Of a stretch of 64,000 nt of DNA, positions 32,217 to 57,966 are shown in pieces (position 1 is the first letter of the stretch; every line of letters begins with the position of its first letter). This DNA comes from a virus. The translations under genes and the position numbers were made by a program. The notes under the pieces are model-generated. The model worked only from the letters and a program-made list of their open reading frames with translations, ran no database searches and was not told where the DNA came from. The stretch is taken from the IMG/VR virus record IMGVR_UViG_3300027905_000001, positions 1 through 64,000 of that record. One strand, given 5' to 3'.

Positions 32217-32735
32217 TTAATTGATATAATTTGACATTAATTTTGCCCCGGCTTCTTGTACGACCTTAACCGCTTGTTCAAGTTCTTTATATACTCCTAG
32301 CCCTATCTGTTTTCGATTAATCATTAAGTAGGCTCGCCATTTTTTGGATGATTTGCGCCAACTAACGCCCCTAAATCCTGAATTAGTTTTGCATTCTGCT
32401 TTTCTATTTTGCATGTTTACTGAATGAGTTACATTTCTAAGATTCCCTTTTGTATTATTTAATGTGTCATGGTCAACGTGATCTACCACTAAATCATCGG
32501 GGCAATTGGTTATTAATCGATGTAGGCGTTTTGGTTTCAATCCTTCGCTAATCGACACATTACTTATGGCATAAAACGAACTTGTCCCTTCAGACCAAAG
32601 AGCATGCCACTTTGCACCACCTTTTTGGGCTATCTCTAAATCCTCCCTATCAATTAAAGTTTCCATCACAGATCCATCTTCTCTATCTAAAAATATTGCC
32701 ACTTTATCCCCTCTAAATTCGAATCTGTTTTTCAT
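32217..32735 (-). CDS. HNH homing endonuclease with AP2-type DNA-binding domain
   Basis: HRLI...DHVDHDTLNNTKGNLR (HNH) and SGFRGVSWRKSSKKWRAYLMINRKQIGLGVYKELEQA (AP2-like). Confidence 0.75.
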   Translation of the reverse strand: MKNRFEFRGDKVAIFLDREDGSVMETLIDREDLEIAQKGGAKWHALWSEGTSSFYAISNVSISEGLKPKRLHRLITNCPDDLVVDHVDHDTLNNTKGNLRNVTHSVNMQNRKAECKTNSGFRGVSWRKSSKKWRAYLMINRKQIGLGVYKELEQAVKVVQEAGAKLMSNYIN

Positions 32736-32783: not shown

Positions 32784-32812
32784 TTGCACTAAGGTTAAGC
32801 ATGGTATATAAT
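32784..32812 (+). promoter_or_regulatory. Consensus sigma-A promoter (TTGCAC-17-TATAAT) with flanking inverted repeat TATACCAT/ATGGTATA
   Basis: -35 32784-32789, -10 32807-32812; IR arms at 32763-32770 and 32801-32808. Confidence 0.6.
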
Positions 32813-32830
32813 ATAATTCGAGGTGAGGAA

Positions 32831-32992
32831 ATGGGAGATTTAAAAAACAGGCAAAGATATACAACTTCCTTGGATAATGAGCTAGTGGAAAAGCTCAAAA
32901 AGTTATCAGAGAAGACGAAAATTGCCCAATCAAAGTTACTGGATGAAGCAATAGAATTAGTTCTTAAGAAATATGGGAAGCCTGATAAGTAA
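32831..32992 (+). CDS. Ribbon-helix-helix (CopG-like) DNA-binding protein, paralogue of 38993..39172
   Basis: GAGGTGAGGAA RBS then ATG 32831; RQRYTTSLDNELVEKLKKLSEKTKIAQSKLLDEAIELVLKKYG. Confidence 0.6.
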   Translation: MGDLKNRQRYTTSLDNELVEKLKKLSEKTKIAQSKLLDEAIELVLKKYGKPDK

Positions 32993-33031
32993 GGGTTTCC
33001 CTTCCTTTCTGGTATTTAATTAGAATGATTA

Positions 33032-33446
33032 TCAAAAAGGAATGTCATCATCTAAGGAAACTCCGTGACCAAATGAGCCTTTAGCCTCACTTGAGCTATT
33101 CGAGGATTCCGATAAGTTGCTATTCTTCGGGCTAAGGAATTCCACTTCGTCGGCAATCACGTCGTATGACCTTTTTTTTATTGCCATCCTTATCCGTGTA
33201 ATCACTAATCTGTAGCGACCCTGTGACAAGGGCCTTATTTCCTTTTGCTAATGCGTTTGCACATAGCTCTGCAAGCTGTTTAAAACATTTCACGTTAATA
33301 AAATCTGTCTCTTTCTCGCCTGCGGAATTCTTAAACCTTCGCCCGACCGCTAGTGTGAAGTTGGAAATAGCAACGCCCGAAGTTCCATAGCGTAACTCAC
33401 AATCCCTCGTTAAATTCCCTGACAAAATAATCTTATTCATGCTCAC
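33032..33446 (-). pseudogene. ssb: Single-stranded DNA-binding protein gene interrupted by a frame change in an A8 run (33172-33179)
   Basis: N-terminal OB-fold frame 33132..33446; C-terminal frame 33032..33229 ends in acidic tail DDDIPF; one fewer A restores a ~137-aa SSB. Confidence 0.75.
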
Positions 33447-33615
33447 TTACCTCTTTCTGCTCAATCTCGAACTTAGCCCATAACCACACAATGATATTTA
33501 ACAGATCATCCTTGGTTGTTCCGTTGTGAGTTACTAGGTCTAACTCGTTTTGCACAACTTTAATCTTTTGATATTCTTCTAGCTCATCCCAATTTGGATA
33601 TTTCATTTTTGGCAC
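33433..33615 (-). CDS. Hypothetical protein (60 aa)
   Basis: ORF track frame, coupled to ssb. Confidence 0.4.
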   Translation of the reverse strand: MPKMKYPNWDELEEYQKIKVVQNELDLVTHNGTTKDDLLNIIVWLWAKFEIEQKEVSEHE

Positions 33616-33627
33616 ATCCTCATCCTT

Positions 33628-34032
33628 TTAGATCAAGTATCCTTTTCCCTTGCAACATTCGCACACCTTCCATTGAGTACACATACCCAAGTCGATAAAC
33701 CAACCCTCAAGAACCTCGGTTACCTTTAGCCCCATGCCTTTGTCACCCACCTCTTTTGGCTGTTTCGAACAAGGACTTATATTGCTATCACACTCACATT
33801 CATCGCACTCTTCACAGGCAGTAACCATCGGCATCTTGTCCCACAATATGGATTCCGGCGTTGCTGTGCATTTTTGCTCACCAAGCATTTGCTTTATCGC
33901 TGGATTAAGATTAATTGACCAAAAAAGCATAGCCTTGTTATCCTCATCGTGCCTTAGTGGATGCTTGCCTAAGTAAATGTGAGTCGGTCCACCTTCGAAT
34001 TCGTTGATTATTCTTGGATTCATTTTAAACAC
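33628..34032 (-). CDS. Hypothetical Cys-rich protein (134 aa)
   Basis: CEECDECECD and CECCKGKGY clusters. Confidence 0.45.
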   Translation of the reverse strand: MFKMNPRIINEFEGGPTHIYLGKHPLRHDEDNKAMLFWSINLNPAIKQMLGEQKCTATPESILWDKMPMVTACEECDECECDSNISPCSKQPKEVGDKGMGLKVTEVLEGWFIDLGMCTQWKVCECCKGKGYLI

Positions 34033-34048
34033 ACATCCTCATTATTTT

Positions 34049-34744
34049 CTATTGTCCTATTGGTTCGCTTATTTTCTCGAATTCCAGTACATACACCCAC
34101 GGATTTAAGCCCCATCCGTAGCCTCGTTTTTTGTTTAAATTATCCCAAAGTTCACTAAATGCATCCCTGGCCGTGAGATCAAATTCGGCAACATCGTCAA
34201 ATTTTCCATCACCTATTTTGTCGTGAAAATCAATACAACCTTCGCTTCTTGCGTCTTCCTCAGTTATGATCTGCAACCTCTCGGCTCTAATATTTGTCAC
34301 CTTCAGGAATAACCTAGCGGCTTTGCGTGGCATATAGATCGATGGCCGCCAGTAGTTAAAATGCTCAGGGTTATCATCTGCCCTGTATACTATTGGGCAA
34401 CCTTCAAAATCGTCGATATCAAGTTTTCCAGTTACTACCCGATAGTCCATATCAAGCTGTGACCACGTTTCTCGAACCCAAAGGATATCTCCGACATCAC
34501 GGGGTATTTTGCAATAATGACTTACCCGCCCATTATCCGACTCCCAGCACACGCACCCCTCGTTTTTGGAATTTGTCGAACTCGTGATTCTGCCAATAAT
34601 ATGATAATTTTCAGGCGGTTGATATTTAACTACTCGCCTTGTTTGAGTTTTCCTCCCTTCCAGAATCGCATTAATGGACTCACTAGAAAAAATTATCGGC
34701 TTTTCTTTAATCATTTTTTGCTCCTTTCTAGGCCCTCTATCCAT
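34049..34744 (-). CDS. ASCH/PUA-like domain protein (tentative)
   Basis: 231 aa; EGRKTQTRR motif near N-terminus. Confidence 0.45.
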   Translation of the reverse strand: MDRGPRKEQKMIKEKPIIFSSESINAILEGRKTQTRRVVKYQPPENYHIIGRITSSTNSKNEGCVCWESDNGRVSHYCKIPRDVGDILWVRETWSQLDMDYRVVTGKLDIDDFEGCPIVYRADDNPEHFNYWRPSIYMPRKAARLFLKVTNIRAERLQIITEEDARSEGCIDFHDKIGDGKFDDVAEFDLTARDAFSELWDNLNKKRGYGWGLNPWVYVLEFEKISEPIGQ

Positions 34745-34830
34745 CTCGCCTTATAGTTTTGTACCTATTTTAATTTATCCAAGCCCTAGCACCACTCTAT
34801 GGCCCTCTCATAGGATTATGCTCACTCCCA

Positions 34831-35490
34831 TCATGCGCGGATTACTCGCAATAACATCTCCTCAAATTCAATCTCCCTCAGCTCTCGAAGCGACCTTATG
34901 TTATCTCCCACGACAACCCATGCTTGCTTTATTTTTTCTTCAAGGCCAAAGTTCTCGTCAATATTTGCCATGATTCTGTCCATGACTTCTTCCGTTTCCT
35001 CGACTTCTCGCGCGGTCCATGTTGGTTCTGGTTCGGCTAGGTCGCCAACATCATGATACAAATATGATTCATCCTCAACTTTTTCGTCGAAACATTCTGC
35101 TTCATATGTCCCGTAACATTCTGAAACTTCGCTTTGTGATGTTTTAGGTTCGACTTTACCAACTTCCGCACAATCATCCACCCCCTCACTCTCCAACGCC
35201 TCAGACACATCTTCTCGCTCTTCTACGGCAACCTCAGCCACTTCCTCCGCACTCTCTTTAACTTGCTCGATGACCACCTTTCTTATCTTGATCTTCGCGT
35301 TAGCCTCCAACCCTTTTTTAAGCAAATAAGCTACACTTGTGCTAACGTCATACTTTCGCGCTACGTCGATGGTTAGCCCAATCGCGTTAAACTGTTCTAT
35401 TGTTGTTATTTCTGCTCGCAATTTGTTTGCATTTTCAGATATTTTTGACATGTTCAGCCTCCTCATTCTTGTTATAGTTGCGTTTTCCAT
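34831..35490 (-). CDS. Hypothetical acidic protein (219 aa)
   Basis: ORF track frame; highly acidic middle region. Confidence 0.45.
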   Translation of the reverse strand: MENATITRMRRLNMSKISENANKLRAEITTIEQFNAIGLTIDVARKYDVSTSVAYLLKKGLEANAKIKIRKVVIEQVKESAEEVAEVAVEEREDVSEALESEGVDDCAEVGKVEPKTSQSEVSECYGTYEAECFDEKVEDESYLYHDVGDLAEPEPTWTAREVEETEEVMDRIMANIDENFGLEEKIKQAWVVVGDNIRSLRELREIEFEEMLLRVIRA

Positions 35491-35701
35491 TGTCTGAGTA
35501 TCCTAATTCGTCCCAATCGAAGATACCCACGTTCGAGCCCATGTCATGTTTGGCTCTAAAATTGCAGATCCTTTTGGTGTTGCATCGTAATTCCTCCGCT
35601 ATTTGCCTGTCTGTAAGTCCGTTTAGCCATAGTTGCTCGATAGCTTCAGCTTCCATAGGGCTTATTGATTGTGCCATTTTCATTTTGTACCTCCCTAACA
35701 A
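35435..35701 (-). CDS. Small HTH protein (sigma region-4-like)
   Basis: LWLNGLTDRQIAEELRCNTKRI pattern. Confidence 0.45.
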   Translation of the reverse strand: MLGRYKMKMAQSISPMEAEAIEQLWLNGLTDRQIAEELRCNTKRICNFRAKHDMGSNVGIFDWDELGYSDNGKRNYNKNEEAEHVKNI

Positions 35702-36029
35702 GTTTTACTCCATAAAAATCCATCAACTTCGCACATGTAGGGCAAGGTATAGGATCAACCTCATCAGCGCATACTAGATACAACTCTGCACCTTCAAGGC
35801 TTTCCCTCGCATTAATGAGTGCCATTTGCTCTGCATGCACACTAGAACATTCGGCGTAATCTCCTACGTTATGCTCTATATCCAATCTGGAGCACGTAAC
35901 GCATGTTGTAGGGCTTGTATTCCATCCCTTTGATATAATCTGACCATGCAGGACGATTACGCATGCGTAGCGACGCTTGAGGCAGTTCGAGCAGGGTAAT
36001 AGTTTTCGTGCTTCGTCGAAGTAGTTCAA
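35646..36029 (-). CDS. dCMP/cytidine deaminase family zinc-dependent deaminase
   Basis: VHAEQMALINA ... PCPTCAKLM (HAE and PCxxC zinc-binding motifs). Confidence 0.8.
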   Translation of the reverse strand: MNYFDEARKLLPCSNCLKRRYACVIVLHGQIISKGWNTSPTTCVTCSRLDIEHNVGDYAECSSVHAEQMALINARESLEGAELYLVCADEVDPIPCPTCAKLMDFYGVKLVREVQNENGTINKPYGS

Positions 36030-36751
36030 ATGTTACCCTCCATAGCTTTTCTCAAATCATCCTTGATGTAATAATTGCACCCGTGCATCTTAAGTACCAT
36101 TTCGACATTCTCGCCAGTCTGTTTCCAGTCAATCTGATTCGCTCTTGAATCGTAATTCCAGCGACCAACTTTCCAAAGGTCAACGTGTTTATGGAGAATA
36201 TGGATAAAGTCAAGTGCATCGGCAGGAATGATGATAGGCTCAAGACTTACCCATGTTTTTATTCCAAGCGTTCTTGCCGTTATGATGGCAGCTATTCGAT
36301 CATCTACGGGTGCTGCGCCTTTTTCCCACCGTTCAGAGCATTTGCGGACAGTCAAGGTTGTCCCGAACGAATCACCCTTTTCGTACAAGCTAAAATCTCT
36401 ACTCGCCCTCATGCCGCCTTTTGTTAGAACGGTGAAGTTTGCTCCTGCGTTTTTGATGGCTTCGATAATTTCTTTGGTTGGAGTTGTGTCAATATCGCAA
36501 TAAGGATCTGTTGAAAAGCATAGAAGGATATTCTTGCCTTTGAACTTACCGCTTGATAATTGCTTTTTGGTCGCTTCAACTATTCCTTCGCGCGGTTTAA
36601 CGTCAGCGAAATCTTCGTTTGGTTTCCATCTGTCGTGCATCTTTTTGGCAAAGCAATAAGTACATAAATGTGAACATCCCTCGTAGATATTAAGAGCTAA
36701 GGGTGCATATTCAAGAGCTTTTCCGCTCGGCTTATAAATCGGATTGATCAT
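36026..36751 (-). CDS. Radical SAM enzyme (function unknown)
   Basis: 241 aa; CSHLCTYC (Cx3Cx2C) cluster near N-terminus. Confidence 0.65.
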   Translation of the reverse strand: MINPIYKPSGKALEYAPLALNIYEGCSHLCTYCFAKKMHDRWKPNEDFADVKPREGIVEATKKQLSSGKFKGKNILLCFSTDPYCDIDTTPTKEIIEAIKNAGANFTVLTKGGMRASRDFSLYEKGDSFGTTLTVRKCSERWEKGAAPVDDRIAAIITARTLGIKTWVSLEPIIIPADALDFIHILHKHVDLWKVGRWNYDSRANQIDWKQTGENVEMVLKMHGCNYYIKDDLRKAMEGNI

Positions 36752-36766
36752 ATTCTTCCTCCTCTA

Positions 36767-36949
36767 TTAGTCCCTATAGGCTTTTATACACTTCCCGATA
36801 TCCATTTGCGTACCTGCACTTTTTGCAAGAACTGAACCCACTAACACGGAATCAAGGAATTCCCTAGCCTTCTTAGCTTCGTCGGGCGTTAGGTAATCTC
36901 TATATGTTTTTCGTGGCTTTTTGAATTGTCGGGCTGTTTTACCGAGCAT
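36767..36949 (-). CDS. Hypothetical small protein (60 aa)
   Basis: ORF track frame between loader and radical SAM genes. Confidence 0.35.
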   Translation of the reverse strand: MLGKTARQFKKPRKTYRDYLTPDEAKKAREFLDSVLVGSVLAKSAGTQMDIGKCIKAYRD

Positions 36950-36961
36950 GGCTTGCCCCTC

Positions 36962-37471
36962 CTAATCTTTTTTTGTCCTGTGGTCAAAATCTTTGGCAAA
37001 TAATAAATGATCTACCGTCATGCCTAAAATCCTAGATACTGTAGCCTCGCCGTAATCTCCTAATCTTTCTTCAAGTGGTTTGGGGTAGTAGTTCGTCGTA
37101 AACCCCGTCAATAGATTGGCGCGATACCTTAGATCAATCAGCCGGTAATACATCGCTTGCACCCATTCTGTGGGTTTTTCCTTGCCGACATCGTCCAAGA
37201 TCAGAGCTTGAGCCTTGGCTAAAGTTTCAATCTTTGCCTCCATGCCACTTTCGTTTTTCCTGAACTGAGCATCCCTTAACTCTGCAAGTAAGTCGGCAGA
37301 CGATACAAACACAACCTGCACCCCTTTATCAAGCATGTCCTTGGCGATAATGCTGGCTAACATCGTTTTCCCTACTCCTGGATTTCCGAGCAATAAAAAC
37401 CCTTTGGCGTCCGATTCACTTTTGATTAATTCAGGCCATAGCTTTAAGTAATTAATTACACCCTTGTGCAT
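36962..37471 (-). CDS. DnaC/IstB-like helicase-loader ATPase (N-terminus probably longer; frame open upstream to about 37730)
   Basis: Walker A GNPGVGKT, Walker B LILDDVG; upstream 87 in-frame codons lack a canonical start. Confidence 0.7.
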   Translation of the reverse strand: MHKGVINYLKLWPELIKSESDAKGFLLLGNPGVGKTMLASIIAKDMLDKGVQVVFVSSADLLAELRDAQFRKNESGMEAKIETLAKAQALILDDVGKEKPTEWVQAMYYRLIDLRYRANLLTGFTTNYYPKPLEERLGDYGEATVSRILGMTVDHLLFAKDFDHRTKKD

Positions 37472-37730
37472 GTTTCGGTTTCCGTCGTTGACTTTATAAT
37501 TAGCAAGGCTGTATCTGAGCTGTTGAGATGTTAGCCCGGATGATTTTAGTTTTCTGGCCGCGTTCTTCTTAATCTTACAAACACACTCCTTGTAAAGCGT
37601 TAGTCCGTATAAGTCTTTTTCATCAGTGGCAACTATCTCCCGATCTTCACAATCAGAGCAGTTATATTTCTTTTCGACAGGTTTTAAACTGTATCCAGAT
37701 GTTCCAGTGTTGAAAAGGTTAAGTCTGTTC

Positions 37731-38651
37731 CTAACTTCTTCCTCTGAGGATTTCGGAGAGTATGGGGTCCGTTTCCCAAGGTTTAGAATCTCCTTGATCG
37801 ATTGAATTGCTTCCAGTTTTGTTACCTCCCTTGGCTTTTAAGTTCTTGCCCCATTTAACACAATTTCCCAGCCACGTATTAATCTGTGATCTTGGTTTAC
37901 TTTTTACATCAAGCGGCTTATCTAGTTTGTCGAAAGACCAGTCCTTAATCGCTCCCAAGATATCTATGGTTGGGTATCGTTCTTGAAGCTCTCGGTACAT
38001 TTTCAATTCCTTCGCCCTGTCAATCGGATAATCCTTAACTTTTTCAAGTGTGCGAATTAGGTCTATTTCATCAGGCAGAAGAATGAGATCATTTTCTTTT
38101 CTTTCTTTTACTTCCTTTCCTTTACTATTCTCTTCTTTAGGGATTTCTGTAGGAAATAATCCATCTTCAAGAGGATTAATGTCTACATTAACTACAGATG
38201 GTAGGTTGTTACCGTCAACATAAACCATATTTACAGTAAAATTATCAGTTTGCTTAGGTGGAGAAATAAGTAGATATTCAGATATGAGCGTTATCTCTTT
38301 GCGTCTTTCTACAGATTTGAAGTATCTTTTTTGGATTCCTCCGCTAGTAAGTATTTCGTATTTTAGATACAAGGATGAATTGAAAAATTCCCACTTAATG
38401 CAATCAGAAACTATCTCGGTGATAATATTAATGTCTACATTAACCTTACTGGAGAGTAGTAATTGTTCGCGCTCTGTCCATTTATAGAAATATCCTTCCT
38501 TATATATTTTCATAAGAAGTTTGATTAAAACCGCAAATCCAGTGATCTTATGCTTTGCTTCAATAAGCAAAACTTTGTCGTCTTGGTCCATGTCAATATC
38601 GAGGGGAAAATAATCCAATCCCTCTTTTTGCGGTCTTGCCAAGTCATTCAC
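37731..38651 (-). CDS. Phage replisome organiser (DnaD-like, Lin1244/Lin1753-type N-terminal domain)
   Basis: 306 aa; N-terminal FPLDIDMDQDDKVLLIEAKHKITGFAVLIKLLMKIYKEGYFYKW. Confidence 0.65.
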   Translation of the reverse strand: MNDLARPQKEGLDYFPLDIDMDQDDKVLLIEAKHKITGFAVLIKLLMKIYKEGYFYKWTEREQLLLSSKVNVDINIITEIVSDCIKWEFFNSSLYLKYEILTSGGIQKRYFKSVERRKEITLISEYLLISPPKQTDNFTVNMVYVDGNNLPSVVNVDINPLEDGLFPTEIPKEENSKGKEVKERKENDLILLPDEIDLIRTLEKVKDYPIDRAKELKMYRELQERYPTIDILGAIKDWSFDKLDKPLDVKSKPRSQINTWLGNCVKWGKNLKAKGGNKTGSNSIDQGDSKPWETDPILSEILRGRS

Positions 38652-38862
38652 CTTCCACTAAAGAAAAAATATCATCATATGGAATATCAAGCTCCTCAGC
38701 TATCTTCTTGGCTGTAGCAGGACTAGGGTTGAATCTGCCCTTTTCGATTGCATAAATACTTTCCTTGGACACTCCAACCTTCTTGGCTAAATCTGCAATT
38801 GACACGCCTTTTCTTATCCTTAACTCCGCTAATTTAGCTCGGTCGGTTTTAATTTTTAACAC
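38644..38862 (-). CDS. XRE-family helix-turn-helix transcriptional regulator
   Basis: 72 aa; LRIRKGVSIADLAKKVGVSKESIYAIEKGRFNPS (Cro/CI-type HTH). Confidence 0.75.
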   Translation of the reverse strand: MLKIKTDRAKLAELRIRKGVSIADLAKKVGVSKESIYAIEKGRFNPSPATAKKIAEELDIPYDDIFSLVEGE

Positions 38863-38942
38863 TTACTTACCTCCGTTTCCTTAATCATCCTACTTATACA
38901 TTATAACATATACTTGTACAAGTAACAATCAATAGGTATAAA

Positions 38943-38979
38943 TTGAAATAACTTTGTGTAGACTGTATAATACAAAGTT
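38943..38979 (+). promoter_or_regulatory. Consensus sigma-A promoter (TTGAAA-17-TATAAT) bracketed by 8-bp inverted repeat AACTTTGT/ACAAAGTT
   Basis: -35 38943-38948, -10 38966-38971; IR arms 38950-38957 and 38972-38979 flank the -10. Confidence 0.6.
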
Positions 38980-38992
38980 GGGAGGAGATATT

Positions 38993-39172
38993 ATGACTGG
39001 CGAATTAAGAAATAGAGAACGTTTTGGCGCTGCTTATGATAAAGATTTACTGGCCGGATTACGCAAATTATCAAAAGATACACGAATTCCAGCCAGTAAG
39101 TTGATTGATGAGGCGTTAGAGGATTTATTGAAAAAATATGGAGTTGAGGTGAAGAGAGAAAGCCAGGAGTGA
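38993..39172 (+). CDS. Ribbon-helix-helix (CopG-like) DNA-binding protein, paralogue of 32831..32992
   Basis: GGGAGGAG RBS then ATG 38993; RERFGAAYDKDLLAGLRKLSKDTRIPASKLIDEALEDLLKKYG. Confidence 0.6.
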   Translation: MTGELRNRERFGAAYDKDLLAGLRKLSKDTRIPASKLIDEALEDLLKKYGVEVKRESQE

Positions 39173-39213
39173 TTCCCTGGCTATTTTTTTACTCCCAATA
39201 CATCTGACTTTTC

Positions 39214-40440
39214 TTACTCGACCCCTATTCTAGCCCTTGCAATACCCGCATAAGCTTTTTCTTTGTCAATTCCGATAAAATGGCAACCTACACCCTTTGC
39301 GGCCAATGCGGTTGTGCCTGATCCAATAAAGGGGTCTAGCACCGTACCGCCTTGAGGTGTGACAAGTTTAATTAAGTACTTCATGAGATCAAGGGGCTTT
39401 ACGGTAGGGTGATTATTACCTTCGCCCCGTTCCCTCTTGGAGGCCTTAGCACAATAAAAGAATCTACTTGCCCCTCCCGAATCGCCATAACTAATCATTT
39501 CCGTTCCCTCTGGACGACTTTCTCTTGCGTAAGCATTAGCCTGATAACCTTTACTTGATACTCCCTTTTTAGCTCCAGTTCCACTTTTCAGTATGCCTGT
39601 TTGCTCATCCAGAACTGCAGCTGCTACTTCATCAAAAATTATGTTTGCGGGAAATCTTCCCAATGGATTACTTTGGCTTTCTGTTAAGTTGGTTCCCTTT
39701 CCGTTTCCATATACTGTATTTGGTGTACGTGGTGGTCTACCTCTATCGTCATTGGTCCCTATTCGGCTATCGTTGATATTGATCCCACCTGTTCCCCATT
39801 TAAGAACATTAGCCGCCACTGTCTTTTCGCTTAATGGTTTTCTGGCAACTACAATAGGTTCATGCGCAGGTTTTAGAGCCGTACCCCAACCGTCCCATTG
39901 CTTTGCTTCATCAGTTTGAGCATCTAGATCGAATGTTCCACCCAACTCATACGATGCTGGCCTATCTCCCTGCTCTAAATGGATGTTATTGAAACCCATC
40001 CCTTGCTGCTGAAAATTAGTCTTTTCCAGCTTGCAGTAATCCTTTGTATTAGCTGACCCGTAAAGCAGTTTACCTTCAATACCCTTGGCAATGTTGTAAG
40101 ACTTAGGGAATCCACTGCCATAAATCCACATGATCTGATCCCTGATCTCGAATCCAGCGTCTTCAATAGCACAAGCCATTCGGTGGTATGTTCTGCTCCC
40201 ACCGAAGGATAGTAGATATCCCCCAGGCTTTAGTACACGTAAAAATTCTTTCCACATTGCAACGTTGTAGGCAATTCCGGTATTGTCCCAAGACTTCCCC
40301 ATGAATCCCAATTCATAAGGCGCATCCGTTACGCCAGAATCTATACTATTTGCGGGTATTCCCTTCATAACTTCCAGGCAGTCACCTAAAATAATTGAAT
40401 CAAGCAAACTTTTACCCCTCCCTTTACTCAGCCTGTCCAC
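39214..40440 (-). CDS. DNA amino-methyltransferase (N6-adenine or N4-cytosine, beta-class motif order)
   Basis: 408 aa; DAPY catalytic-type motif near N-terminus, AdoMet motif VLDPFIGSGTT near C-terminus; no cognate nuclease adjacent. Confidence 0.75.
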   Translation of the reverse strand: MDRLSKGRGKSLLDSIILGDCLEVMKGIPANSIDSGVTDAPYELGFMGKSWDNTGIAYNVAMWKEFLRVLKPGGYLLSFGGSRTYHRMACAIEDAGFEIRDQIMWIYGSGFPKSYNIAKGIEGKLLYGSANTKDYCKLEKTNFQQQGMGFNNIHLEQGDRPASYELGGTFDLDAQTDEAKQWDGWGTALKPAHEPIVVARKPLSEKTVAANVLKWGTGGININDSRIGTNDDRGRPPRTPNTVYGNGKGTNLTESQSNPLGRFPANIIFDEVAAAVLDEQTGILKSGTGAKKGVSSKGYQANAYARESRPEGTEMISYGDSGGASRFFYCAKASKRERGEGNNHPTVKPLDLMKYLIKLVTPQGGTVLDPFIGSGTTALAAKGVGCHFIGIDKEKAYAGIARARIGVE

Positions 40441-40523
40441 CCAGCATCAATAACCCATCCAACTTATAGATAAAATAATCCTTCTGCTCCTTTTTGTTTT
40501 TATTCAAATGCCCAGCTTTGGCA

Positions 40524-40892
40524 TTATTCTATGAACCATTTACCGTACTTTAATTTTTGTCTAGTTACCGTCCATGTTCGCTCATTATCCTGCAAGCACT
40601 GATTGTCGGTATCCCTACCACGATAAGTACTTTTATCATTACCGCTCAATGTAACTATGACAGTTTTACCTTCGATCCATGCCGAAAGAGCTTCTTGCCA
40701 AGTGACTTCTTGAGGCACCGGCTCCCAATCCTCATCAAATAGCAGCTGTGTAGGCTCGTCGGTTGATCCTTGTCTCTGGAGCCTCTTGAATGAATTAAAG
40801 AAATATATTTCCCCGTTCTTCATCCTTTTATAAGGAGTTATTGCTTCTGGATTATTTAAGGCAAGTGTATATAATTCTCCAGTTTTAAGCAT
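40524..40892 (-). CDS. Hypothetical protein (122 aa)
   Basis: ORF track frame. Confidence 0.45.
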   Translation of the reverse strand: MLKTGELYTLALNNPEAITPYKRMKNGEIYFFNSFKRLQRQGSTDEPTQLLFDEDWEPVPQEVTWQEALSAWIEGKTVIVTLSGNDKSTYRGRDTDNQCLQDNERTWTVTRQKLKYGKWFIE

Positions 40893-40924
40893 TTAATCAC
40901 ACTCATTTCTCTCTATTATTATCT

Positions 40925-41571
40925 CTAAATGTAATCATTCACGTTTTTCCTAAACAATCCACCCATACTCTTCTGCCATACTGACTTATTATTTTTGCCA
41001 ATTTCCTGCTTGGTCATGACAGGTTTTGTCGCTGCTTCGAGTTCTGGCATGCCGGATTTTATTCTGGCGTTGAAGCATTTCCTTGAGATGTTATTGGATT
41101 GTGCGAGTTGGATGTAGCTCGTGGTCATAAGGCGCATCTCTTGGAAAATCTAGTATCAATTGGAGTAGTGGCTGCTATTTCGGCGCTCCATCCCCTGCCC
41201 ATTCTGGTAACAAAAGTACCCTTTGATATTCCGTTTCTCACAGCTATGTCCTCATATTCCTTGGGATATTTGCGCTTCTTTTCAGCCATGATCTTAATGA
41301 TCGTATCTCGCTCAATAGAAGGTATCTCTGACGCTTCTTTAGGTGACATGCCCCCTCTCGTTACGCGAGAATAAAACAATGACCTGCTTATGCCGTTTCG
41401 TTCTGCTATGATTAGCCATTCACCCCATTTGTGGTAGTTGACAGGGGTTGTTATAGCTCGCTCAATACTCCACGCTAGGTCACGCACTCTTGCTGTGACT
41501 ACTCTTTCGTTGATGCCATTTTGTGCCGCCATAGCATACTTGTCAGGATTGATATAGAAGGAGTAAGACAT
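40925..41571 (-). pseudogene. HTH-repeat protein (four NGIS-type repeats) split by a frame change at an A4/T4 run (41143-41146)
   Basis: Repeats 1-3 in 41125..41571, repeat 4 in 40925..41137; one extra T on the coding strand joins them. Confidence 0.5.
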
Positions 41572-41622
41572 ATTTACCTGCTTTGATTAATGGGGCGGCC
41601 TTTCAACCGCCCCTATATTTAA

Positions 41623-41862
41623 TTACTCAATCACTATGACCTTGCCTGATTCTAGCCACGTTTTTACACCTTCACATTCCGAACCTCCATTTATAGATTC
41701 ATAGAGGTATCCTTCGCAAAAACCATCGCCATCGTCACAGTTTTTGCAACCAAAGCAGTATTCTTCGGTTACTTCCCAGCACTCAGGATGGAGATGTACG
41801 CTAGATACTGTTCTGCCATCTGTTGATACCCACTCGACAGACTTGCTTCCTTTTTCAATCAT
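41623..41862 (-). CDS. Hypothetical small Cys-rich protein (79 aa)
   Basis: CFGCKNCDDGDGFCEG. Confidence 0.4.
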   Translation of the reverse strand: MIEKGSKSVEWVSTDGRTVSSVHLHPECWEVTEEYCFGCKNCDDGDGFCEGYLYESINGGSECEGVKTWLESGKVIVIE

Positions 41863-41986
41863 CTCATTGCACGCGAAACATCGTCGGGTCTTTCTGGTCC
41901 TTAAAATAGGTGAGCTCCTTATAAATGTGGCTATTTTACTCCCTCCTCGAATGAGGCAAGTGTGAGTTGCCGTTGTGTTTGGTTAC

Positions 41987-42731
41987 TTAAAAAGGATAAA
42001 GTTCTAGTGGAATATTTCTTCCAGCCTCCGCGATTACAACAATTTTTCCTGTCAACTCTTCGATTTCTCTAACCATTCTTTCTGCGTTGGAATTGCTGTC
42101 TGATAAATGAAGTAGCACTATCTTCTTCACTTGCGACAAATCATTAGCTCGCAAAAACTCTTTGACATGCTCAAGTGAAAAATGGCTTTCGAGTAGTCGG
42201 TTTTTCATGCTTTGGGGGATGTAGCCAGCTTCAATGTTTGCGTCAAGGGTATCTTTGCAGTAGTTTGATTCTACAAGGATATAATTTAGTGAATTAAAAC
42301 GATTGCGAATATAGTAGGTATCCGTACAAAAAATAAGTTTTTCGCTGGTTGGTTTGTATTGAATTAGGTAGCCGAAAGGCTGATCGCAATCATGTTGAGT
42401 GTCGAACGGTAAAACGATGAAATCTCCAACTTGAAACTGTACGCCAGCGTCAACCATTTGTGTTCTGTGGCTCTGAGATATGCCTATTTGCTTGGCTGTT
42501 CCGGAAGAGGTATAAATATCTACACCCGCCTTAATAACGTCCTTTGCGCTTCGTGAATGGTCAAAGATGTTCGTGGGTTATTAGGCACCCACGGATACGA
42601 GATAGATTAAAATCTAGGGATTGTTGTATTTTTTTAAAAGAAACTCCACATTCAATTAAAAGAGAACCGGTGTCGCTTTCTAAAACATAGCCATTTGCCC
42701 TTGATGACGAACTGATAACCTTGAGGTGCAT
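41987..42731 (-). pseudogene. MBL-fold metallo-hydrolase gene with frame change inside the HxHxDH motif; 5' end overlaps the HNH gene 3' end
   Basis: N-terminal frame MHLKVISSSSRANGYVLESDTGSLLIECG...ITHEHL then stop; C-terminal frame FDHSRSAKDV... (41987..42457); removing one T at 42563-42565 gives THEHLDHS. Confidence 0.65.
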
Positions 42732-43300
42732 TGTACTTTCCCCTTTCTCTCTTTAAATCTCCAAATGAATCCTCCAGCTTGTTTCCTAGTTAATCCTGGT
42801 TTGTATTCTGTCTCGCTTGCAACTTGAAGAATGTTCCTTCCGCATACTCCAGTTAACCTAAAGGCCTCTTGAGCGTTGGGATATTCGGCTAGTAGCTCGC
42901 CATTTAGGTTGTATTGTTGAATGGCATTAGGTCTTATGAATTTGTTGTATTTATTCATTCCTTTTAGCATGTTTGGATGAATAGATATTGCATGGATAAC
43001 ATTTTCGCTCCCAGATACCCACTCTAGGTTTTCAACCTTGTTGTTTTGCTTATTGCCATCCTTGTGATTTATCTGAGGCTTATTATTGACGTTGGCTATA
43101 AAAGCTTCAGCAACAAGTTTGTGAATTCTCGCATACCTTACACGTCCTTTATGAGTAAGGACTACGGAAAGATAATCCTTTTTACTGTTTTTATTAGACA
43201 AGATAAACCCTTCCCTTAATTTCTTGAAGCTTTTCAACCTACCCTTGGTTGATATTTGATATACACCCTCAAATCCCTCAATATCTTTCCATAGTTCCAA
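42680..43300 (-). CDS. HNH homing endonuclease with NUMOD4-type N-terminus
   Basis: WKDIEGFEGVYQIS...GRL (NUMOD4-like) and HKDGNKQNNKVENLEW (HNH). Confidence 0.75.
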   Translation of the reverse strand: MELWKDIEGFEGVYQISTKGRLKSFKKLREGFILSNKNSKKDYLSVVLTHKGRVRYARIHKLVAEAFIANVNNKPQINHKDGNKQNNKVENLEWVSGSENVIHAISIHPNMLKGMNKYNKFIRPNAIQQYNLNGELLAEYPNAQEAFRLTGVCGRNILQVASETEYKPGLTRKQAGGFIWRFKERKGKVQCTSRLSVRHQGQMAMF

Positions 43301-43357
43301 TTTTCACACCTCCCTAATTTACTTACTCCCTGAATTTATAACCTTTAAGTTCATAGC

Positions 43358-44380
43358 CTAAAACCCTGGGCCAGTGGTTTGATTATTCGCTTCCTCGGCC
43401 TTTTTATCCATCTCAACTATTTCAGCATCAGTAATCCCTTCTGGTTCCGTAACTGCTTCTCGGTCGCTTGAAACTTCCTCGCCTTGGATATCCACAACAT
43501 CTCCCTTATTAGCGTTTTCGGCAATGACCTGCTCGACCTCGGCTTCTTTAAATTCGTGTTCGAGCTGATTTAGTCGCATGTAATCATCATCAATCTTTTG
43601 ACTGTCAATGGTAATGTCTTTGTAGGCGGCAATAAAAACAGTTTTGAAGCACATTTTATCGAACCATCCCTCGACTTGCTCTTTACCGGCCGGCTTACCA
43701 TTTTTCCAGATTGTCTTTTCTCCGCCCCAAAACTCGGCAGAAGCTTTATCCGGTTTCCTCTTCTCGATATCCTTACGCGGCATAACAACAAGTTTGTTTT
43801 TCTCAGGATGATCAAAATAGATATGATAATAGAAACCTCCTACAATATCACCACGCTCAAAGTCGTTGGTGATCTCAAACTCATAATGTTCAACTTTATT
43901 GGCGTGGGATTTTTTATGCGATTTGAATTTATCCGTCGAATAAACAAGTTCGACCACAACGTCATCTGGCACATCTAAGCCATATTTAACTGCCTTGAGC
44001 TGCCTACCTCTGTATCCCGGCATGAAGGTAATGCCATATTTATTGAGTGCCCCTTGCTTGAAGGGGATTAGGCTAACGTGGTTCTCTTGTGTCGGGTCCC
44101 AGCCAATCCTAGCTGCCGCCACAACGCTCTGAGCAAGTTCCTCCATATTGATATTCCCCCAGGTGTAGGATAGTTGTTCCTGGTAATCTCCGGTCTTCTT
44201 GAGGCGCTTTTCCTCTGCCTTCTTGAGCATGGAATCGGCAACAATAAAGTAGTTTTGCGCTAAACGCTTCTGAAAGTTAGTTAGTGCAATATCGCCAACG
44301 CTACCTTTAAATTCAGCTAATACCTTGTTCATAAATCGTTCCGACATTGGTTGCTCTTTTACCGCTACTTCATTTGCCAT
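43358..44380 (-). CDS. recT: RecT-family single-strand annealing protein
   Basis: 340 aa; RecT-like core with PW...M..KT-type region and acidic C-terminal tail. Confidence 0.65.
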   Translation of the reverse strand: MANEVAVKEQPMSERFMNKVLAEFKGSVGDIALTNFQKRLAQNYFIVADSMLKKAEEKRLKKTGDYQEQLSYTWGNINMEELAQSVVAAARIGWDPTQENHVSLIPFKQGALNKYGITFMPGYRGRQLKAVKYGLDVPDDVVVELVYSTDKFKSHKKSHANKVEHYEFEITNDFERGDIVGGFYYHIYFDHPEKNKLVVMPRKDIEKRKPDKASAEFWGGEKTIWKNGKPAGKEQVEGWFDKMCFKTVFIAAYKDITIDSQKIDDDYMRLNQLEHEFKEAEVEQVIAENANKGDVVDIQGEEVSSDREAVTEPEGITDAEIVEMDKKAEEANNQTTGPGF

Positions 44381-46380
44381 TATTCTTGTACCTCCACTCT
44401 CAAAATAGGATCTTCCACACTGACGATCAACTTAATAACCTGCGAATTTACCCCCACAAAACTGCTCAAGCTTTCCGCGTTATCGACAAAAATAGGGCAA
44501 CTAACTCCATAAAACTCTGACAGCAAATTGATAATTTCTAATCCGGTATTAATTTTTCCACCGTTATTAGCACCATCGAATTCAACGAGCACTCCGTTCG
44601 TATCTACCAGTGTCCGACAAACTTCTTTCTCCGTCCCATCGTTCAGGGTGTCAAACAACTTGAACTTGACTGTTTCGAACTTGCTATTAATCCTATCTTC
44701 CAGCATTTTCACTTTCGCACTTGTGAACTGTTTAATCAGGAAATCGTGTCGTTCGTATTCGCTGAGTTCTTGTGCAAGTTTGCTTTCCTCTGCCTTTAGC
44801 TCATTAATGCGAATATGGGCCTTTTCGACTACTTCCTTCTGATTCAAGGTTTTGTTCAGGGCTTCAATTGTGTCTGCAATTTCTTGCTTTCTGGCTAGGA
44901 TTTCGGTTGTTGTATCTTCGACGGGCTTGTCCAGTTCGACGTTAATCCTGTCTAGAGTGGCTTTAAATACAGAATAAGTGCTGTCTGCATCATAATTAAC
45001 GACTGTCGGTTGTTGCTGCTCTGTTATTGCGGTTTCTAATTCGGAAAGGCGAATATTGATTCTTTTCAAAGATTCTTCCAACGTGCTGAGACTCGCAGAA
45101 TCTATTTCCTTTTCCTCGTTAAGAACTTCGGCCCTAGCCGCCTTATCTTTGCCCTTGGCGCGAATAGATGCCAATGCCTGAACTTTGTCCTTGTCGAAAT
45201 TCTCTTTCAGCTTATCTATCTTTTCTTGAGTTTTTCCTTCGGGCAAAGGTTGTTCGCAAGTTGGACAATTAAAGCCTTCTGGAGCTACAAATTGCCTCGA
45301 ATTTTCTTCGCTCCACTCTTTGCGAAGTTCGATAATTTTTCCAGCAATTGCATCAAGTTCCGCAATTCTTACAAGGGAATTAGAGCCTAACCTCGATACT
45401 TCCTTGGAAATGGAATACTTTTCACCTTCAAGATTTGCTTTTTCGTCAACCAACTTTTTGGATTCAGCCCCAGCTTTTACTTCAAGTTCTAACTTCCGCC
45501 CATTAATCTGATTCTGTAATGCATACGCCTGTTGCTGTTTCTGACGATACAAACTAGCCCCTTGAGCGTTTGTAGCTAGCTCTAATTCAATGCCCTGTAA
45601 AGTGGCTTTCTGCTCCTGTAGCGAGGTTTCTATAGCTGTGTAGTCAACCTCATCTACGGATATCGACCGTTGCTGTTCACTGATTCTGGCAGGTATCCCA
45701 TCAAGATCCTTTTTGGTGTTTTTGATCTTCTCGGCTATGACTAATTTGTGATTTTCGATTGTTCTGCCCGAATTGATTACGGTTAAAAGGTCCAACATGC
45801 TTTTATCGGATGCTGTTACGCATGAATCAATAACGCCTGAGTCTGATAAATTACCTGATATTTCGAACAGAATCTTGCGCCGTTCTTGCCAAGTCCAGCC
45901 CTTGCCATCCGTATTGAAAAAGAGGGGATTCGTTAGGAGTTTGAAGATATTTTCTTTTATGAGAAGGTTAATTTCTAGGACATAATCCTTGGCTTTCACA
46001 GGGACGTCGTTTACCCAGTAGGACGTTTCATTTCCGTCAAAGATGGTTTCTTGCGAACCTCTTTTTTTAACCCATTTTTCTGAGAGTTGGCGCTTTAGTT
46101 TTAGAGACTTGCCGTTTACAAGAAAGATTCCCTCGACGCTTGATTCAAGATGATGGATTTCGTTGCCGTCTTTGTCTTGTGGTTTTATTTGGTAGTCTGA
46201 TCTTCCGTCCGAATCCTTTCCAAATAAAAGCCACTGACTAGAGTTATAAATCGTGGATTTATAAGTTGCATTTCTTCCGTAAACATCAGCATTTTTTCCG
46301 TTTAACTCAAGGGTAAAATCCTCTACGCCTTTGAAATTAATTAGGTGCAGTGATTGTAATTGAATAATAGTTTGATTCAT
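44380..46380 (-). CDS. SbcC/Rad50-like ATPase with long coiled coil
   Basis: 666 aa; N-terminal P-loop-like YGRNATYKSTI, central coiled-coil, C-terminal ATPase lobe; adjacent to recT. Confidence 0.6.
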   Translation of the reverse strand: MNQTIIQLQSLHLINFKGVEDFTLELNGKNADVYGRNATYKSTIYNSSQWLLFGKDSDGRSDYQIKPQDKDGNEIHHLESSVEGIFLVNGKSLKLKRQLSEKWVKKRGSQETIFDGNETSYWVNDVPVKAKDYVLEINLLIKENIFKLLTNPLFFNTDGKGWTWQERRKILFEISGNLSDSGVIDSCVTASDKSMLDLLTVINSGRTIENHKLVIAEKIKNTKKDLDGIPARISEQQRSISVDEVDYTAIETSLQEQKATLQGIELELATNAQGASLYRQKQQQAYALQNQINGRKLELEVKAGAESKKLVDEKANLEGEKYSISKEVSRLGSNSLVRIAELDAIAGKIIELRKEWSEENSRQFVAPEGFNCPTCEQPLPEGKTQEKIDKLKENFDKDKVQALASIRAKGKDKAARAEVLNEEKEIDSASLSTLEESLKRINIRLSELETAITEQQQPTVVNYDADSTYSVFKATLDRINVELDKPVEDTTTEILARKQEIADTIEALNKTLNQKEVVEKAHIRINELKAEESKLAQELSEYERHDFLIKQFTSAKVKMLEDRINSKFETVKFKLFDTLNDGTEKEVCRTLVDTNGVLVEFDGANNGGKINTGLEIINLLSEFYGVSCPIFVDNAESLSSFVGVNSQVIKLIVSVEDPILRVEVQE

Positions 46381-46776
46381 CTATTTCCCATCCTTTTCAG
46401 TTTTATTTTTCCACCACAACGGAAGATTTCTCCTAAACAAGGGCTTATCTCCATCCCAACCGTCGATATTATAAATCGGTATCATCTCCATTAACGCGAC
46501 ATTATGCTCCCTATTGCACCCTTCCGACTGCTCCCAAGCCCCGCATAAAAATATTGCATCGCAGCTACTTACAAGCTCCTCGCAAAAGGTCAGAGCTAAT
46601 GCTCGTTGTTCTGGTACTTTGTCGCTGAGATAGGAAAAAGAGTGAACTGGCGAGATTGGGATAACGCCGAACTTTGTTAATGCTTGGCAGATGTGCGTGA
46701 TGGCTTGGAGGTTTTGCTTTTTGCCGTTGAAGGGGTGGCAGATATACACTTTTTTCATAATTGTCCTCCTTCGCAT
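46381..46776 (-). CDS. Nucleoside 2-deoxyribosyltransferase-like (DUF4406-type) protein
   Basis: VYICHPF...CDAIFLCGAWEQSEGCNREHNVA pattern. Confidence 0.55.
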   Translation of the reverse strand: MRRRTIMKKVYICHPFNGKKQNLQAITHICQALTKFGVIPISPVHSFSYLSDKVPEQRALALTFCEELVSSCDAIFLCGAWEQSEGCNREHNVALMEMIPIYNIDGWDGDKPLFRRNLPLWWKNKTEKDGK

Positions 46777-55145: not shown

Positions 55146-55555
55146 GATAATATCAAGTATTTTTTCAGTCGGAATATTTTTTTCAATATCTATATCCTCA
55201 TCTCCTGCCTGAATTTATGTTTTACCAGTCTCTATATACTAGAACGTGTGTTCTTAATTTTCAAGGGGTAATTTGTCGCAAAAGAAATAAATCGTTTCTC
55301 TTCCCCTTTCTCTCGCTACCCGTAGGAACAAAGTCCTACAATCAGTCCTAGATATAATTCAGAATATTTATTTAAGTTATTGACAGTATACGCTATAACG
55401 TTTGTCGAAATCGCGTGAAATAAAGGAGGCCAAATGTGAATATTTTGTGATTATAAATTATACTTAAGTCTACATATTATAATACCTGCTACATTTTTGT
55501 GTTAGCAGGATTAATCCTATCCTCTGTGGAAGTATTTTCCTATGGTGGTGAGGCG

Positions 55556-55777
55556 ATGGATTTAGAAGATAAGTTAAAGGATAACAAAATACAATACATA
55601 CTAGACAAGCGTGATATGTCGCAAAAAGACCTTGCCGCAACGCTCGGGTGGTGGCCGAGTGACATAAGCGACATCGTTAACGGTAAGGTTAAGCGCCTTA
55701 CGCTCATTCGCGCTTCGATGATATCCGTTGCTCTCGGGTATTCGGTTGAGTATATTTGGCCTACTTTATTCAAGTAG
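55556..55777 (+). CDS. XRE-like HTH regulator (track start 55499)
   Basis: DKRDMSQKDLAATLGWWPSDISDIVNGKVKRLTLIRASMISVALG. Confidence 0.55.
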   Translation: MDLEDKLKDNKIQYILDKRDMSQKDLAATLGWWPSDISDIVNGKVKRLTLIRASMISVALGYSVEYIWPTLFK

Positions 55778-55914
55778 GCCAAATATTTTTTTATATTTTT
55801 TTAGTCATAAAATTAGACTTTCGTCTATATACTTTATCACACCCAGTAAGCCACCGTCACACCACGTCTTACACTATACTACGCCAGTCAGACAAAATTT
55901 TGAGAGGTGAGAAT

Positions 55915-56281: not shown

Positions 56282-56299
56282 GGAAGTGAGGTTGAAATA

Positions 56300-57852: not shown

Positions 57853-57966
57853 TTGTACTCAACGATTCAATGCGCTTTATAGGCTCCTTTGGTCATGCCG
57901 TGCGGTCCGTAAAGTGCTTTATTATCCTTACTTTTTTATTTTGTATTTATTTTATATTTTTGCGAG

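Follow-up and report, generated by a model that had tools for sequence, protein, structure and literature searches.

Probable early decay in the replication and recombination module of a silent prophage of Candidatus Desulfosporosinus infrequens

The prophage and its replication and recombination module

The window analysed here, a stretch of 64,000 nucleotides, is the start of scaffold 00h2 in the metagenome-assembled genome (MAG) of the peat bacterium "Candidatus Desulfosporosinus infrequens" SbF1, and a siphovirus-type prophage spans approximately 2–55 kb of it. The region from 33032 to 42731 is best explained, at a level that we would call probable for the reading as a whole, as the replication and recombination module of this temperate siphovirus-type prophage. 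All genes under study lie on the minus strand. The TerS, TerL, portal, protease and capsid proteins of the prophage give near end-to-end matches to their Pfam models, so there is no general degradation of the sequence. Nearly all of the prophage genes have "no detected expression" in 36-day metatranscriptomes, in which the host ssbA_1 gene is among the top transcripts. Elsewhere in the window, at 6417-6423, there is a textbook G/GT -1 frameshift site (A_AAA_AAC), a slippery heptamer from which the -1 frame continues into a conserved extension.

Two free-standing HNH endonuclease genes were identified from profile matches. The first (NUMOD4 plus HNH_3; 42680-43300) overlaps the start of a gene encoding an MBL-fold hydrolase with its 3' end and sits between this gene and a recT-like gene, two genes that are 1-3 nt apart in relatives. 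The second (HNH_3 plus AP2; 32217-32735) is located about 300 nt downstream of the phage ssb gene.

Frameshifts in ssb and in the MBL-fold hydrolase gene

ORF translations, homolog alignment and Pfam matches indicate that the phage ssb gene (33032-33440) is broken by a +1 insertion. Its N-terminal piece (33440-33132) encodes 102 aa in the 0 frame from ATG 33440 and ends in ...GNKKKVIRRDCRRSGIP followed by a stop, and the C-terminal 45 codons (SYDVIADEVEFLSP...DDDIPF) are found in the +1 frame, with the end of DDDIPF at 33035 and the stop codon at 33032-33034. Read directly from the letters, the run at the break is A8 at 33172-33179 (T8 on the plus strand). One A fewer in this run restores ...GNKKRSYDVIADEVEFL and gives a 135-aa SSB, which covers 100% of related SSBs of 129-136 aa at up to 83% identity. 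The Pfam SSB (OB fold) model PF00436 is matched over positions 1-93 of 104 (94.5 bits) by the protein as encoded and over 1-104 of 104 (106.5 bits) once one A has been removed. This full match and the end-to-end alignment bear out the preliminary description, according to which loss of one A would yield a full SSB ending in DDDIPF. As encoded, no single reading frame contains a complete OB fold, and the acidic C-terminal tip DDDIPF, which is conserved in every aligned SSB homolog, is present in the +1 frame only and hence out of frame with the fold. All ten of the aligned related SSBs (59-83% identical) are encoded by an uninterrupted single ORF, and the residue after their KK at this position is Y, N or R. 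At the run the 0 frame reads A_AAA_AAG, and a -1 shift at this heptamer leads to KKGHTT and a stop after four codons. As such a shift is unproductive, SSB could be restored only by a +1 or -2 shift or by loss of one A, and a programmed -1 shift of the dnaX type at the heptamer is ruled out.

The gene for the MBL-fold metal-dependent hydrolase (41987-42731; phrog_392, Pfam Lactamase_B_2), assigned from homologs and profiles, is likewise broken by a +1 insertion. It is divided into a 56-aa piece (42731-42561) and a remainder in the -1 frame, from which ORF callers retrieve 156 aa starting at ATG 42457; the public annotation lists two "(fragment)" CDS, SBF1_50076 and SBF1_50077. The break coincides with TTT at 42563-42565, where two T residues would give THEHLDH, that is, the HxHxDH metal-binding motif. 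The letters here, "cat ctt tga cca", are one base longer than the homologous DNA of the related loci L023 and L025 (CATC-AAGACCAT and CACC-AGGACCAT, respectively). Instead of one continuous ORF of about 247 aa that includes HxHxDH (PF12706 / PF00753; phrog_392), the gene as encoded stops at THEHL. When repaired, the 247-aa product covers 100% of homologs of 246-247 aa at up to 74% identity and matches Lactamase_B_2 over positions 3-199 of 200 (41.6 bits, cut-off 27); the match to phrog_392 has E = 1e-75. The earlier proposal of an extra T within this motif is therefore upheld by the L023 and L025 DNA together with the full-length match after repair. The run at the lesion is only T3, which is not a meaningful homopolymer, and an A7 run about 70 nt upstream of the lesion in the same gene is in frame. 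We also considered whether this protein could be the anti-Pycsar enzyme Apyc1 (PF23023) and rejected this identity, as the repaired hydrolase scores 17.5 bits over 43 residues against the Pfam gathering threshold of 50 bits. The Apyc1 family appears only among the precomputed hits of the hydrolase homologs.

The helicase loader and the HTH-repeat gene

A replication initiator (37731-38651), which profile matches place with Lin1244_N / DnaD-like proteins (phrog_2562, phrog_20437), precedes a gene for a DnaC/IstB-like helicase loader (36962-37816), and the last 86 nt of the initiator gene overlap the 5' end of the loader gene, the same kind of overlap being present in relatives. The loader frame is open for 292 codons, from 37837, just past the stop codon at 37838-37840, down to 36962, and comprises 284 codons when counted from CTG 37816. 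Alignment with seven homologs, up to 82% identical to the loader, reveals no frame break. The preliminary description had suggested a probable frameshift in T5 (37616-37620), close to a candidate ATG (37621-37623); both elements exist, but no frame change is needed, because the protein is colinear with homologs of 258-291 aa through this site and back to "SIKEILNLGK". A start at ATG 37623 plus one base was rejected, since it would cut the N-terminal CxxC...CxC zinc ribbon in half and the homologs are colinear upstream of it. The AAA+ core, with Walker A (GNPGVGKT) and Walker B (ILDDVG) motifs, lies in one frame with the N-terminal region, and the profiles agree (IstB_IS21, PF01695, 53 bits; phrog_50, E = 2e-47). 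The loader is a full-length ORF and not a fragment, contrary to the depositors' annotation.

What the loader does not possess is a canonical start (ATG, GTG or TTG) behind its ribosome-binding site, and none of these codons occurs among its 122 codons before ATG 37471. The ribosome-binding site GGGAGG (37825-37830), which is kept in relatives, is located 8 nt upstream of CTG 37816, and this CTG occupies the position of ATG in locus L021 and of TTG in locus L022, with the same ribosome-binding site and spacing. Non-canonical initiation codons (CUG, AUU) occur in bacteria, as in the case of infC, which uses AUU. The loader resembles such genes in having a strong GGAGG at canonical spacing before the codon, although here CTG is a candidate start only and may be a simple start-codon mutation that lowers expression. 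The loader gene is thus not frameshifted, and either it may be weakly translated from CTG or it may carry a third, milder lesion in the form of a start-codon substitution. A substitution is not a typical indel artefact, and the CTG therefore counts in favour of real mutations.

The fourth gene encodes a three-repeat HTH-like protein of 148 aa (41125-41571; phrog_1065, function unknown), which we judge to be complete from comparison with its family. It had been proposed that one more base in an A4/T4 run at 41143-41146 would restore a fourth repeat; a T4 run is present, but at 41145-41148, two bases away. Three tandem repeats of about 33 aa in a protein of approximately 140-180 aa are characteristic of phrog_1065, and the 148-aa ORF has this arrangement, with residues 1-142 matching positions 3-146 of the 192-position profile (E = 1e-37). 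Most of its best 150 matches are 140-180 aa in length and align end to end. The ORF is thus typical of complete three-repeat members, as are most of its 1403 relatives, and the gene is probably intact.

Adjoining it is a 70-aa ORF (40925-41137) that, from its translation and phrog_1065 match, contains one more copy of the repeat and a tail; its second ATG, at 41128, overlaps the stop codon of the 148-aa ORF (ATGA). It could be a small gene in its own right, or else a fourth repeat left stranded. The second of these options, in which the deletion of a single T from the T4 run has divided a true four-repeat gene, is in our view rather unlikely. The repeat copy is recognisable (E = 3e-10), the ORF abuts the 148-aa ORF in a neighbouring frame and lacks a good ribosome-binding site, neither of the two public annotations includes it as a gene, its tail (AATKPVMTKQEIG...) resembles those that follow the last repeat in longer homologs, and family proteins with more than three repeats exist. 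However, the nearest homologs (42-53% identity) are three-repeat proteins of 146-197 aa. Among these, P0196 (146 aa) and P0190 (154 aa) terminate at most a few residues from where the 148-aa ORF does, and the native-frame tail PIDTRFSKR matches PIDTSRWSKE in P0190. Moreover, the repeat of the 70-aa ORF matches the middle of the profile and not its missing C-terminus, an ATGA overlap is normal for coupled genes, and in Paenibacillus phages the gene next to the three-repeat homologs is an unrelated one.

Origin and significance of the insertions

The preliminary description had listed four disrupted genes, whereas we find two that are frameshifted, one with a non-canonical start and one that is apparently intact. 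Nor do we find the mix of insertions and deletions, all in homopolymers, that had been taken to indicate sequencing or assembly error, since both confirmed lesions are insertions and that in the hydrolase gene falls at a trivial T3. The SbF1 genome was obtained on the Illumina HiSeq 2000 platform by CLC co-assembly at about 34x coverage (PMC6372793, PMC6018796). Logan contigs from run SRR6195974 are 100% identical to the window over the 26 kb compared (27-12291 and 32944-46751), which includes all of the sites discussed here. The Logan and MAG assemblies probably have their DNA libraries in common; we infer the link between SRR6195974 and PRJNA412436, and no mention of the run was found in searchable papers. 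One of the 55 homopolymers of at least 6 bases in ORFs of at least 100 aa is out of frame, namely the ssb A8, and the other 54 are in frame, including the only other run of eight, an A8 in a serine recombinase gene. An error-prone platform with frame errors over many long runs, as expected of a homopolymer artefact, is thus not what is observed. Megablast of 13 kb of the window against 50,697 phage records and an exact search of GTDB species genomes with a 30-mer spanning the A8 run gave no match, an IMG/VR search for related loci with the radical-SAM protein gave spurious 24-residue matches only, and 5.8 billion clustered proteins contained no intact allele of either gene. With the initiator as the query, the only relatives among JGI metagenome contigs were about 70% identical and lay on short contigs; there was no second copy of the phage, and therefore no independent sample of the population. 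Exact look-ups of the initiator, read from its GTG start, and of the tape-measure protein retrieved no record.

Judged from the assemblies, the most likely reading is that ssb and the hydrolase gene carry genuine inactivating single-base insertions in a silent prophage, and we consider this probable. Given the platform, the identical assemblies, the 54 in-frame runs and the T3 lesion, genuine decay, which had been raised earlier as an alternative, fits better than homopolymer error. A broader artefact, which would have been introduced during library preparation, in sequencing or when a consensus was called for this low-abundance metagenome bin, and would leave the genes intact in the cells, is unlikely, although several observations leave room for it. 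The same MAG contains internally split host genes, namely dnaA (parts 1 and 2), dnaX, recF and hndD_3 (three parts), which are expected to be essential or active and so show a background of artefactual or unexplained breaks, and it consists of 971 scaffolds with 10% strain heterogeneity. The ssb lesion, like homopolymer miscalls of 454, Ion Torrent and Nanopore sequencing, falls in the longest run class of the window, and a Logan contig ends at 32944-32962, about 220 nt from it, a sign that coverage may be thin or heterogeneous at this point. Past each lesion the frame is perfectly preserved, and the lack of a second lesion in either gene fits a very recent mutation and an artefact equally well. 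On the other hand, Illumina indel rates are low at A8 and negligible at T3, two different assemblers produced the same sequence, the other long runs are in frame, and the lesions are located 33 and 42 kb into the scaffold, unlike the breaks in dnaA, dnaX and recF, each of which belongs to the first genes on its scaffold. An internal repeat was rejected as the cause of the Logan break, as no 21-mer from that position recurs in the window.

Two further explanations accept the letters as given. Homing endonucleases target highly conserved sites, and the lesions could be real and have resulted from the adjoining HNH enzymes, through error-prone repair of cuts or selection for cleavage-resistant sites. 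The first HNH gene is about 115 nt away from the hydrolase lesion, which lies in the most conserved motif of its protein, and the second is about 440 nt away from the lesion in ssb. When L023 and L025 are taken as the reference, the NUMOD4-HNH gene is an insertion. By a rough estimate made post hoc, both lesions would come to lie 500 nt or less from one of two such genes in 26 kb with a probability of about 0.01. Cleavage sites are only putative, however, homing is normally a matter of accurate gene conversion, silent changes or the insertion itself are the usual source of immunity, and replication slippage fully explains a change from A7 to A8, which makes this origin very unlikely. The stronger proposition, that the frameshifts are not random decay but repair scars or cleavage-resistant alleles and that selfish endonucleases actively pseudogenise neighbouring phage genes, is likewise very unlikely. 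We attach similarly little weight to the ssb A8 as a recoding or switch site, at which RNA-polymerase slippage, a +1 ribosomal shift or reversible DNA slippage would give full-length SSB. Transcriptional slippage is known at the A9 of Thermus dnaX, in IS elements and at endosymbiont poly(A) tracts, and A8 is at the lower edge of such run lengths. The +1 frame past the run shows no break and is conserved, the 0-frame heptamer is that of E. coli dnaX, and a G/GT site of the phage type occurs in the same window. Unlike the known cases, ssb would need a +1 shift, for which a stimulator (a rare or stop codon in the A site) is lacking, the shift is absent from all of the homologs, and its product would be the ordinary full-length protein and not an isoform. 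Furthermore, ssb is not transcribed in the available data, and the hydrolase lesion would be left unexplained.

Under the favoured reading of early decay, a slippage-prone A7 in ssb may have become A8 by replication slippage, which would truncate the OB fold before its last strand and remove the acidic DDDIPF tip that recruits partner proteins. The hydrolase gene would have acquired a point insertion of T, and because this lies inside HxHxDH no active hydrolase could be made. With the prophage silent and the host's own SSB highly expressed, such real mutations may have been tolerated or even favoured, and the prophage, with structural genes that still look intact, would be at an early stage of decay or domestication. 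The cryptic prophages of E. coli K-12 are an example of defective or domesticated prophages with frameshift pseudogenes. There too, single-base indels inactivate replication and recombination genes of a silent integrated temperate phage while other modules look intact; the present case differs in having two, possibly three, lesions with no secondary decay, and in coming from an uncultured metagenome bin known from assemblies alone.

Two broken genes are ordinary and are already marked in public annotation, since the depositors' MicroScope/GenBank annotation labels ssb, the hydrolase and the loader "(fragment)", and the observation has little importance beyond annotation hygiene. Useful corrections are that the loader is a full-length ORF with CTG at the conserved position of the start, that the HTH-repeat gene is not demonstrably broken and that the insertions are unlikely to stem from homopolymer errors of the platform. 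Should the lesions be real, this prophage no longer has an SSB of its own or the hydrolase of its recombination module, and it has perhaps also lost efficient expression of its loader. We would then be dealing with a defective prophage at an early stage, carried by a "rare biosphere" bacterium with transcriptional activity at zero growth, and this would have a weak bearing on viral lysis as an explanation of the stable low abundance of this bacterium.

Frameshifts in ssb and the MBL-fold hydrolase gene

Only two of the four early genes that the preliminary description proposed to be frameshifted, ssb and the MBL-fold hydrolase gene, are each one base away from an intact frame, whereas the DnaC-like loader has an open frame with CTG at the conserved start position and the HTH-repeat gene resembles three-repeat relatives. 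At 33172-33179 the run proposed in ssb was confirmed, with T8 on the + strand and A8 in the - strand gene. The 0 frame stops 15 codons past this run and the +1 frame encodes SYDVIADEVEFLSP...DDDIPF. Removal of one A yields a 135-aa protein that covers 100% of SSBs of 129-136 aa with up to 83% identity, shows invariant alignment columns before and after the junction and spans positions 1-104 of 104 in the Pfam SSB profile (1-93 for the fragment). Since the inferred intact allele, AAT AAA AAA AGG, already contains A7, the lesion appears to be a classic one-unit growth of a slippery run. A -1 shift at the 0-frame heptamer A_AAA_AAG was ruled out as a means of rescuing SSB, as it meets a stop after four codons; the protein is restorable only by a +1 or -2 shift, or by transcripts lacking one A. 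All ten aligned SSB homologs are uninterrupted, so that there is no sign of conserved recoding at the run among them. Slippage could return the A8 allele to A7, and a minor share of transcripts with A7 is conceivable; there is no indication that slippage or reversion is used.

A genuine programmed -1 frameshift is predicted in the same window at an A6 run in the tail-assembly-chaperone G/GT pair (5800-6695, - strand; slippery site 6417-6426). G (116 aa) occupies 6345-6695 and has the canonical slippery heptamers A_AAA_AAC and C_CCA_AAA in its frame, and the -1 frame stays open between 6444 and 5800; the T part was missed by gene callers.

The extra base proposed for the hydrolase gene at 42563-42565, within the HxHxDH motif, is borne out by DNA alignment with two related loci: the window reads CATCTTTGACCAT, compared with CATC-AAGACCAT in L023 and CACC-AGGACCAT in L025, and carries exactly one extra base. 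Repair of TTT to TT gives a 247-aa protein with 100% coverage of 246-247-aa homologs and identity of up to 74%, which matches phrog_392 ('metal-dependent hydrolase') and covers positions 3-199 of 200 in the Lactamase_B_2 profile; its score against the Pfam Apyc1 model, 17.5 bits, is below the threshold of 50. The run at this lesion is only T3; the gene also has an A7 run some 70 nt farther upstream, and that one keeps its frame.

Genes for an SbcC-like ATPase and a RecT-like protein are followed directly by the MBL gene in these relatives, the recT-like and MBL genes lying 1-3 nt apart, and the window contains an insertion between them, a free-standing NUMOD4 + HNH_3 endonuclease gene (42680-43300, - strand). 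Together with a free-standing HNH_3 + AP2 endonuclease gene (32217-32735, - strand), HNH genes adjoin both frameshifted genes. That such endonucleases cause the frameshifts, through repair scars or cleavage immunity, is speculative and very improbable.

The DnaC-like loader and the HTH-repeat gene

A frameshift in the loader, which had been placed at a T5 run beside an ATG at 37623, is absent. Traced back from its end at 36962, the frame stays open over 292 codons to just short of the stop at 37838-37840, with no ATG, GTG or TTG before 37471. Homologs of 258-291 aa (59-82% identical) are colinear with it from 'SIKEILNLGK' onwards, through the CxxC...CxC zinc ribbon and the A5 run, and DNA comparison aligns GGAGG and 8 nt followed by ATG in the related locus L021, TTG in L022 and CTG at 37816 in the window. 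On the strength of the open frame, the colinear homologs and the conserved start context, the loader is a full-length gene with CTG at the conserved start position, which is either a start-codon mutation or an uncommon, weak start. At 37731-37816 its 5' end shares 86 nt, out of frame, with the 3' end of the upstream replication-initiator gene; the corresponding overlaps in L016, L017 and L021 are 26-68 nt by called starts and are probably longer.

The T4 run reported in the HTH-repeat gene does exist, at 41145-41148, but the gene does not appear broken. Its 148-aa ORF aligns to positions 3-146 of the 192 in the phrog_1065 profile, and the best 150 of 1403 relatives, sought among 1.84 billion representative proteins, are mostly 140-180 aa long and align from residue 1 to about 140. 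Those nearest to it, at 42-53% identity, have three repeats in 146-197 aa; the native-frame tails are alike (PIDTSRWSKE in the homolog P0190, PIDTRFSKR in the window), and in Paenibacillus phage homologs three repeats are followed by an unrelated gene. Downstream, a 70-aa ORF whose ATG overlaps the upstream stop (ATGA) holds one more repeat. Because this ORF is uncalled in both annotations and its tail resembles those of longer homologs, a split four-repeat ancestor is kept as a reading, albeit a rather unlikely one given the three-repeat nearest relatives and the alignment of the additional repeat to the middle of the profile and not to its missing end.

The prophage and its source genome

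A siphovirus-type temperate prophage occupies approximately 2-55 kb of the window. Its late genes encode TerS (SBF1_50028 in Table S1 of PMC6372793, which lists SSB as SBF1_50059), TerL, portal, S78 protease, HK97-type capsid, connector, tail chaperone and tape measure (2341-5187). Beyond the tape-measure gene (1-2340) there are no distal-tail or lysis genes; a + strand membrane protein, HTH_17 and Bro-N genes precede the scaffold start. The early genes form an operon on the - strand (about 52.9 to 26.7 kb), next to a repressor and a large serine recombinase (53-54.8 kb; recombinase 53348-54826), and a second small mobile element (55500-61000) directly after the recombinase carries FtsK/SpoIIIE-family (56524-57852) and Replic_Relax (57967-58605) genes. 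Two paralogous ribbon-helix-helix (RHH_3) genes lie on the + strand within this operon, one between ssb and the HNH-AP2 gene (32801-32992) and the other between an N6/N4 methylase and a cro-like gene (38954-39172).

Three proteins of "Candidatus Desulfosporosinus infrequens", all named '(fragment)' by the depositors and encoded on a 123,551-bp contig, have exactly the sequences of the loader ORF (169 aa), the hydrolase piece (156 aa) and the SSB piece (102 aa). The order of the SBF1 locus tags identifies the window as the opening 64 kb of scaffold 00h2. The feature is an ordinary one, and the public annotation has flagged it already. The dCMP deaminase (35646-36029, - strand), also annotated as a fragment (SBF1_50065), is probably complete, because L022 has a similar 135-aa gene, which overlaps the end of a radical-SAM gene. 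The source genome was binned from an acidic-peat metagenome (971 scaffolds; strain heterogeneity 10%). Two native-soil and three 13C-SIP libraries were sequenced by Illumina HiSeq 2000, and the CLC co-assembly (k = 63) has about 34x coverage in the SIP reads (PMC6372793, PMC6018796).

Origin of the frameshifts and prophage biology

Homopolymer error, preferred in the preliminary description, is the less likely of the alternatives it raised, and an artefactual origin of the frameshifts now seems unlikely. Illumina chemistry argues against platform error, as do a window without Ns and Logan contigs (a separate assembly of run SRR6195974) that are 100% identical to positions 27-12291 and 32944-46751, every site included; both assemblies, however, probably derive from the same libraries, the link between this run and the project (PRJNA412436) being inferred. 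Among 55 runs of at least six bases in ORFs of at least 100 aa, that in ssb is the single one out of frame; the serine recombinase holds the sole other 8-mer (54613-54620), which keeps its frame. The third anomaly, the loader CTG, is a substitution and not an indel. The late genes are full length, and in a Pfam scan from TerS through the tail chaperone the models for TerS, TerL, portal, protease, capsid and connector were matched over nearly their whole length, the tail chaperone giving a weak partial hit.

On the other side, neither ssb nor the MBL gene has a secondary lesion, and the Logan contigs break at 32944-32962, where they overlap by only 19 nt, some 220 nt away from the ssb lesion; as no repeat in the window explains this break, it suggests thin coverage (the other contig ends are at 27 and ~65533). 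Host genes expected to be functional are also split internally among the entries of Table S1a of PMC6372793, including dnaA (parts 1 and 2, SBF1_1180001/2), dnaX (two fragments, SBF1_590001/2), recF (a 92-aa fragment) and hndD_3 (three parts, SBF1_3630003-5). Most of those listed sit among the first genes of short scaffolds. The splits point to some background level of frame breaks in the assembly, artefactual or unexplained. On balance we consider the frameshifts to be probably genuine mutations.

Prophage genes listed in Table S1 (PMC6372793) have 'no detected expression' or rank >1000 in all metatranscriptomes, and host ssbA_1 is among the top transcripts there. In a silent prophage, selection on its own SSB, hydrolase and loader would be relaxed. 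If the lesions are real, they represent a familiar early stage of prophage decay or domestication, and damage to the replication module would also shield the host from induction.
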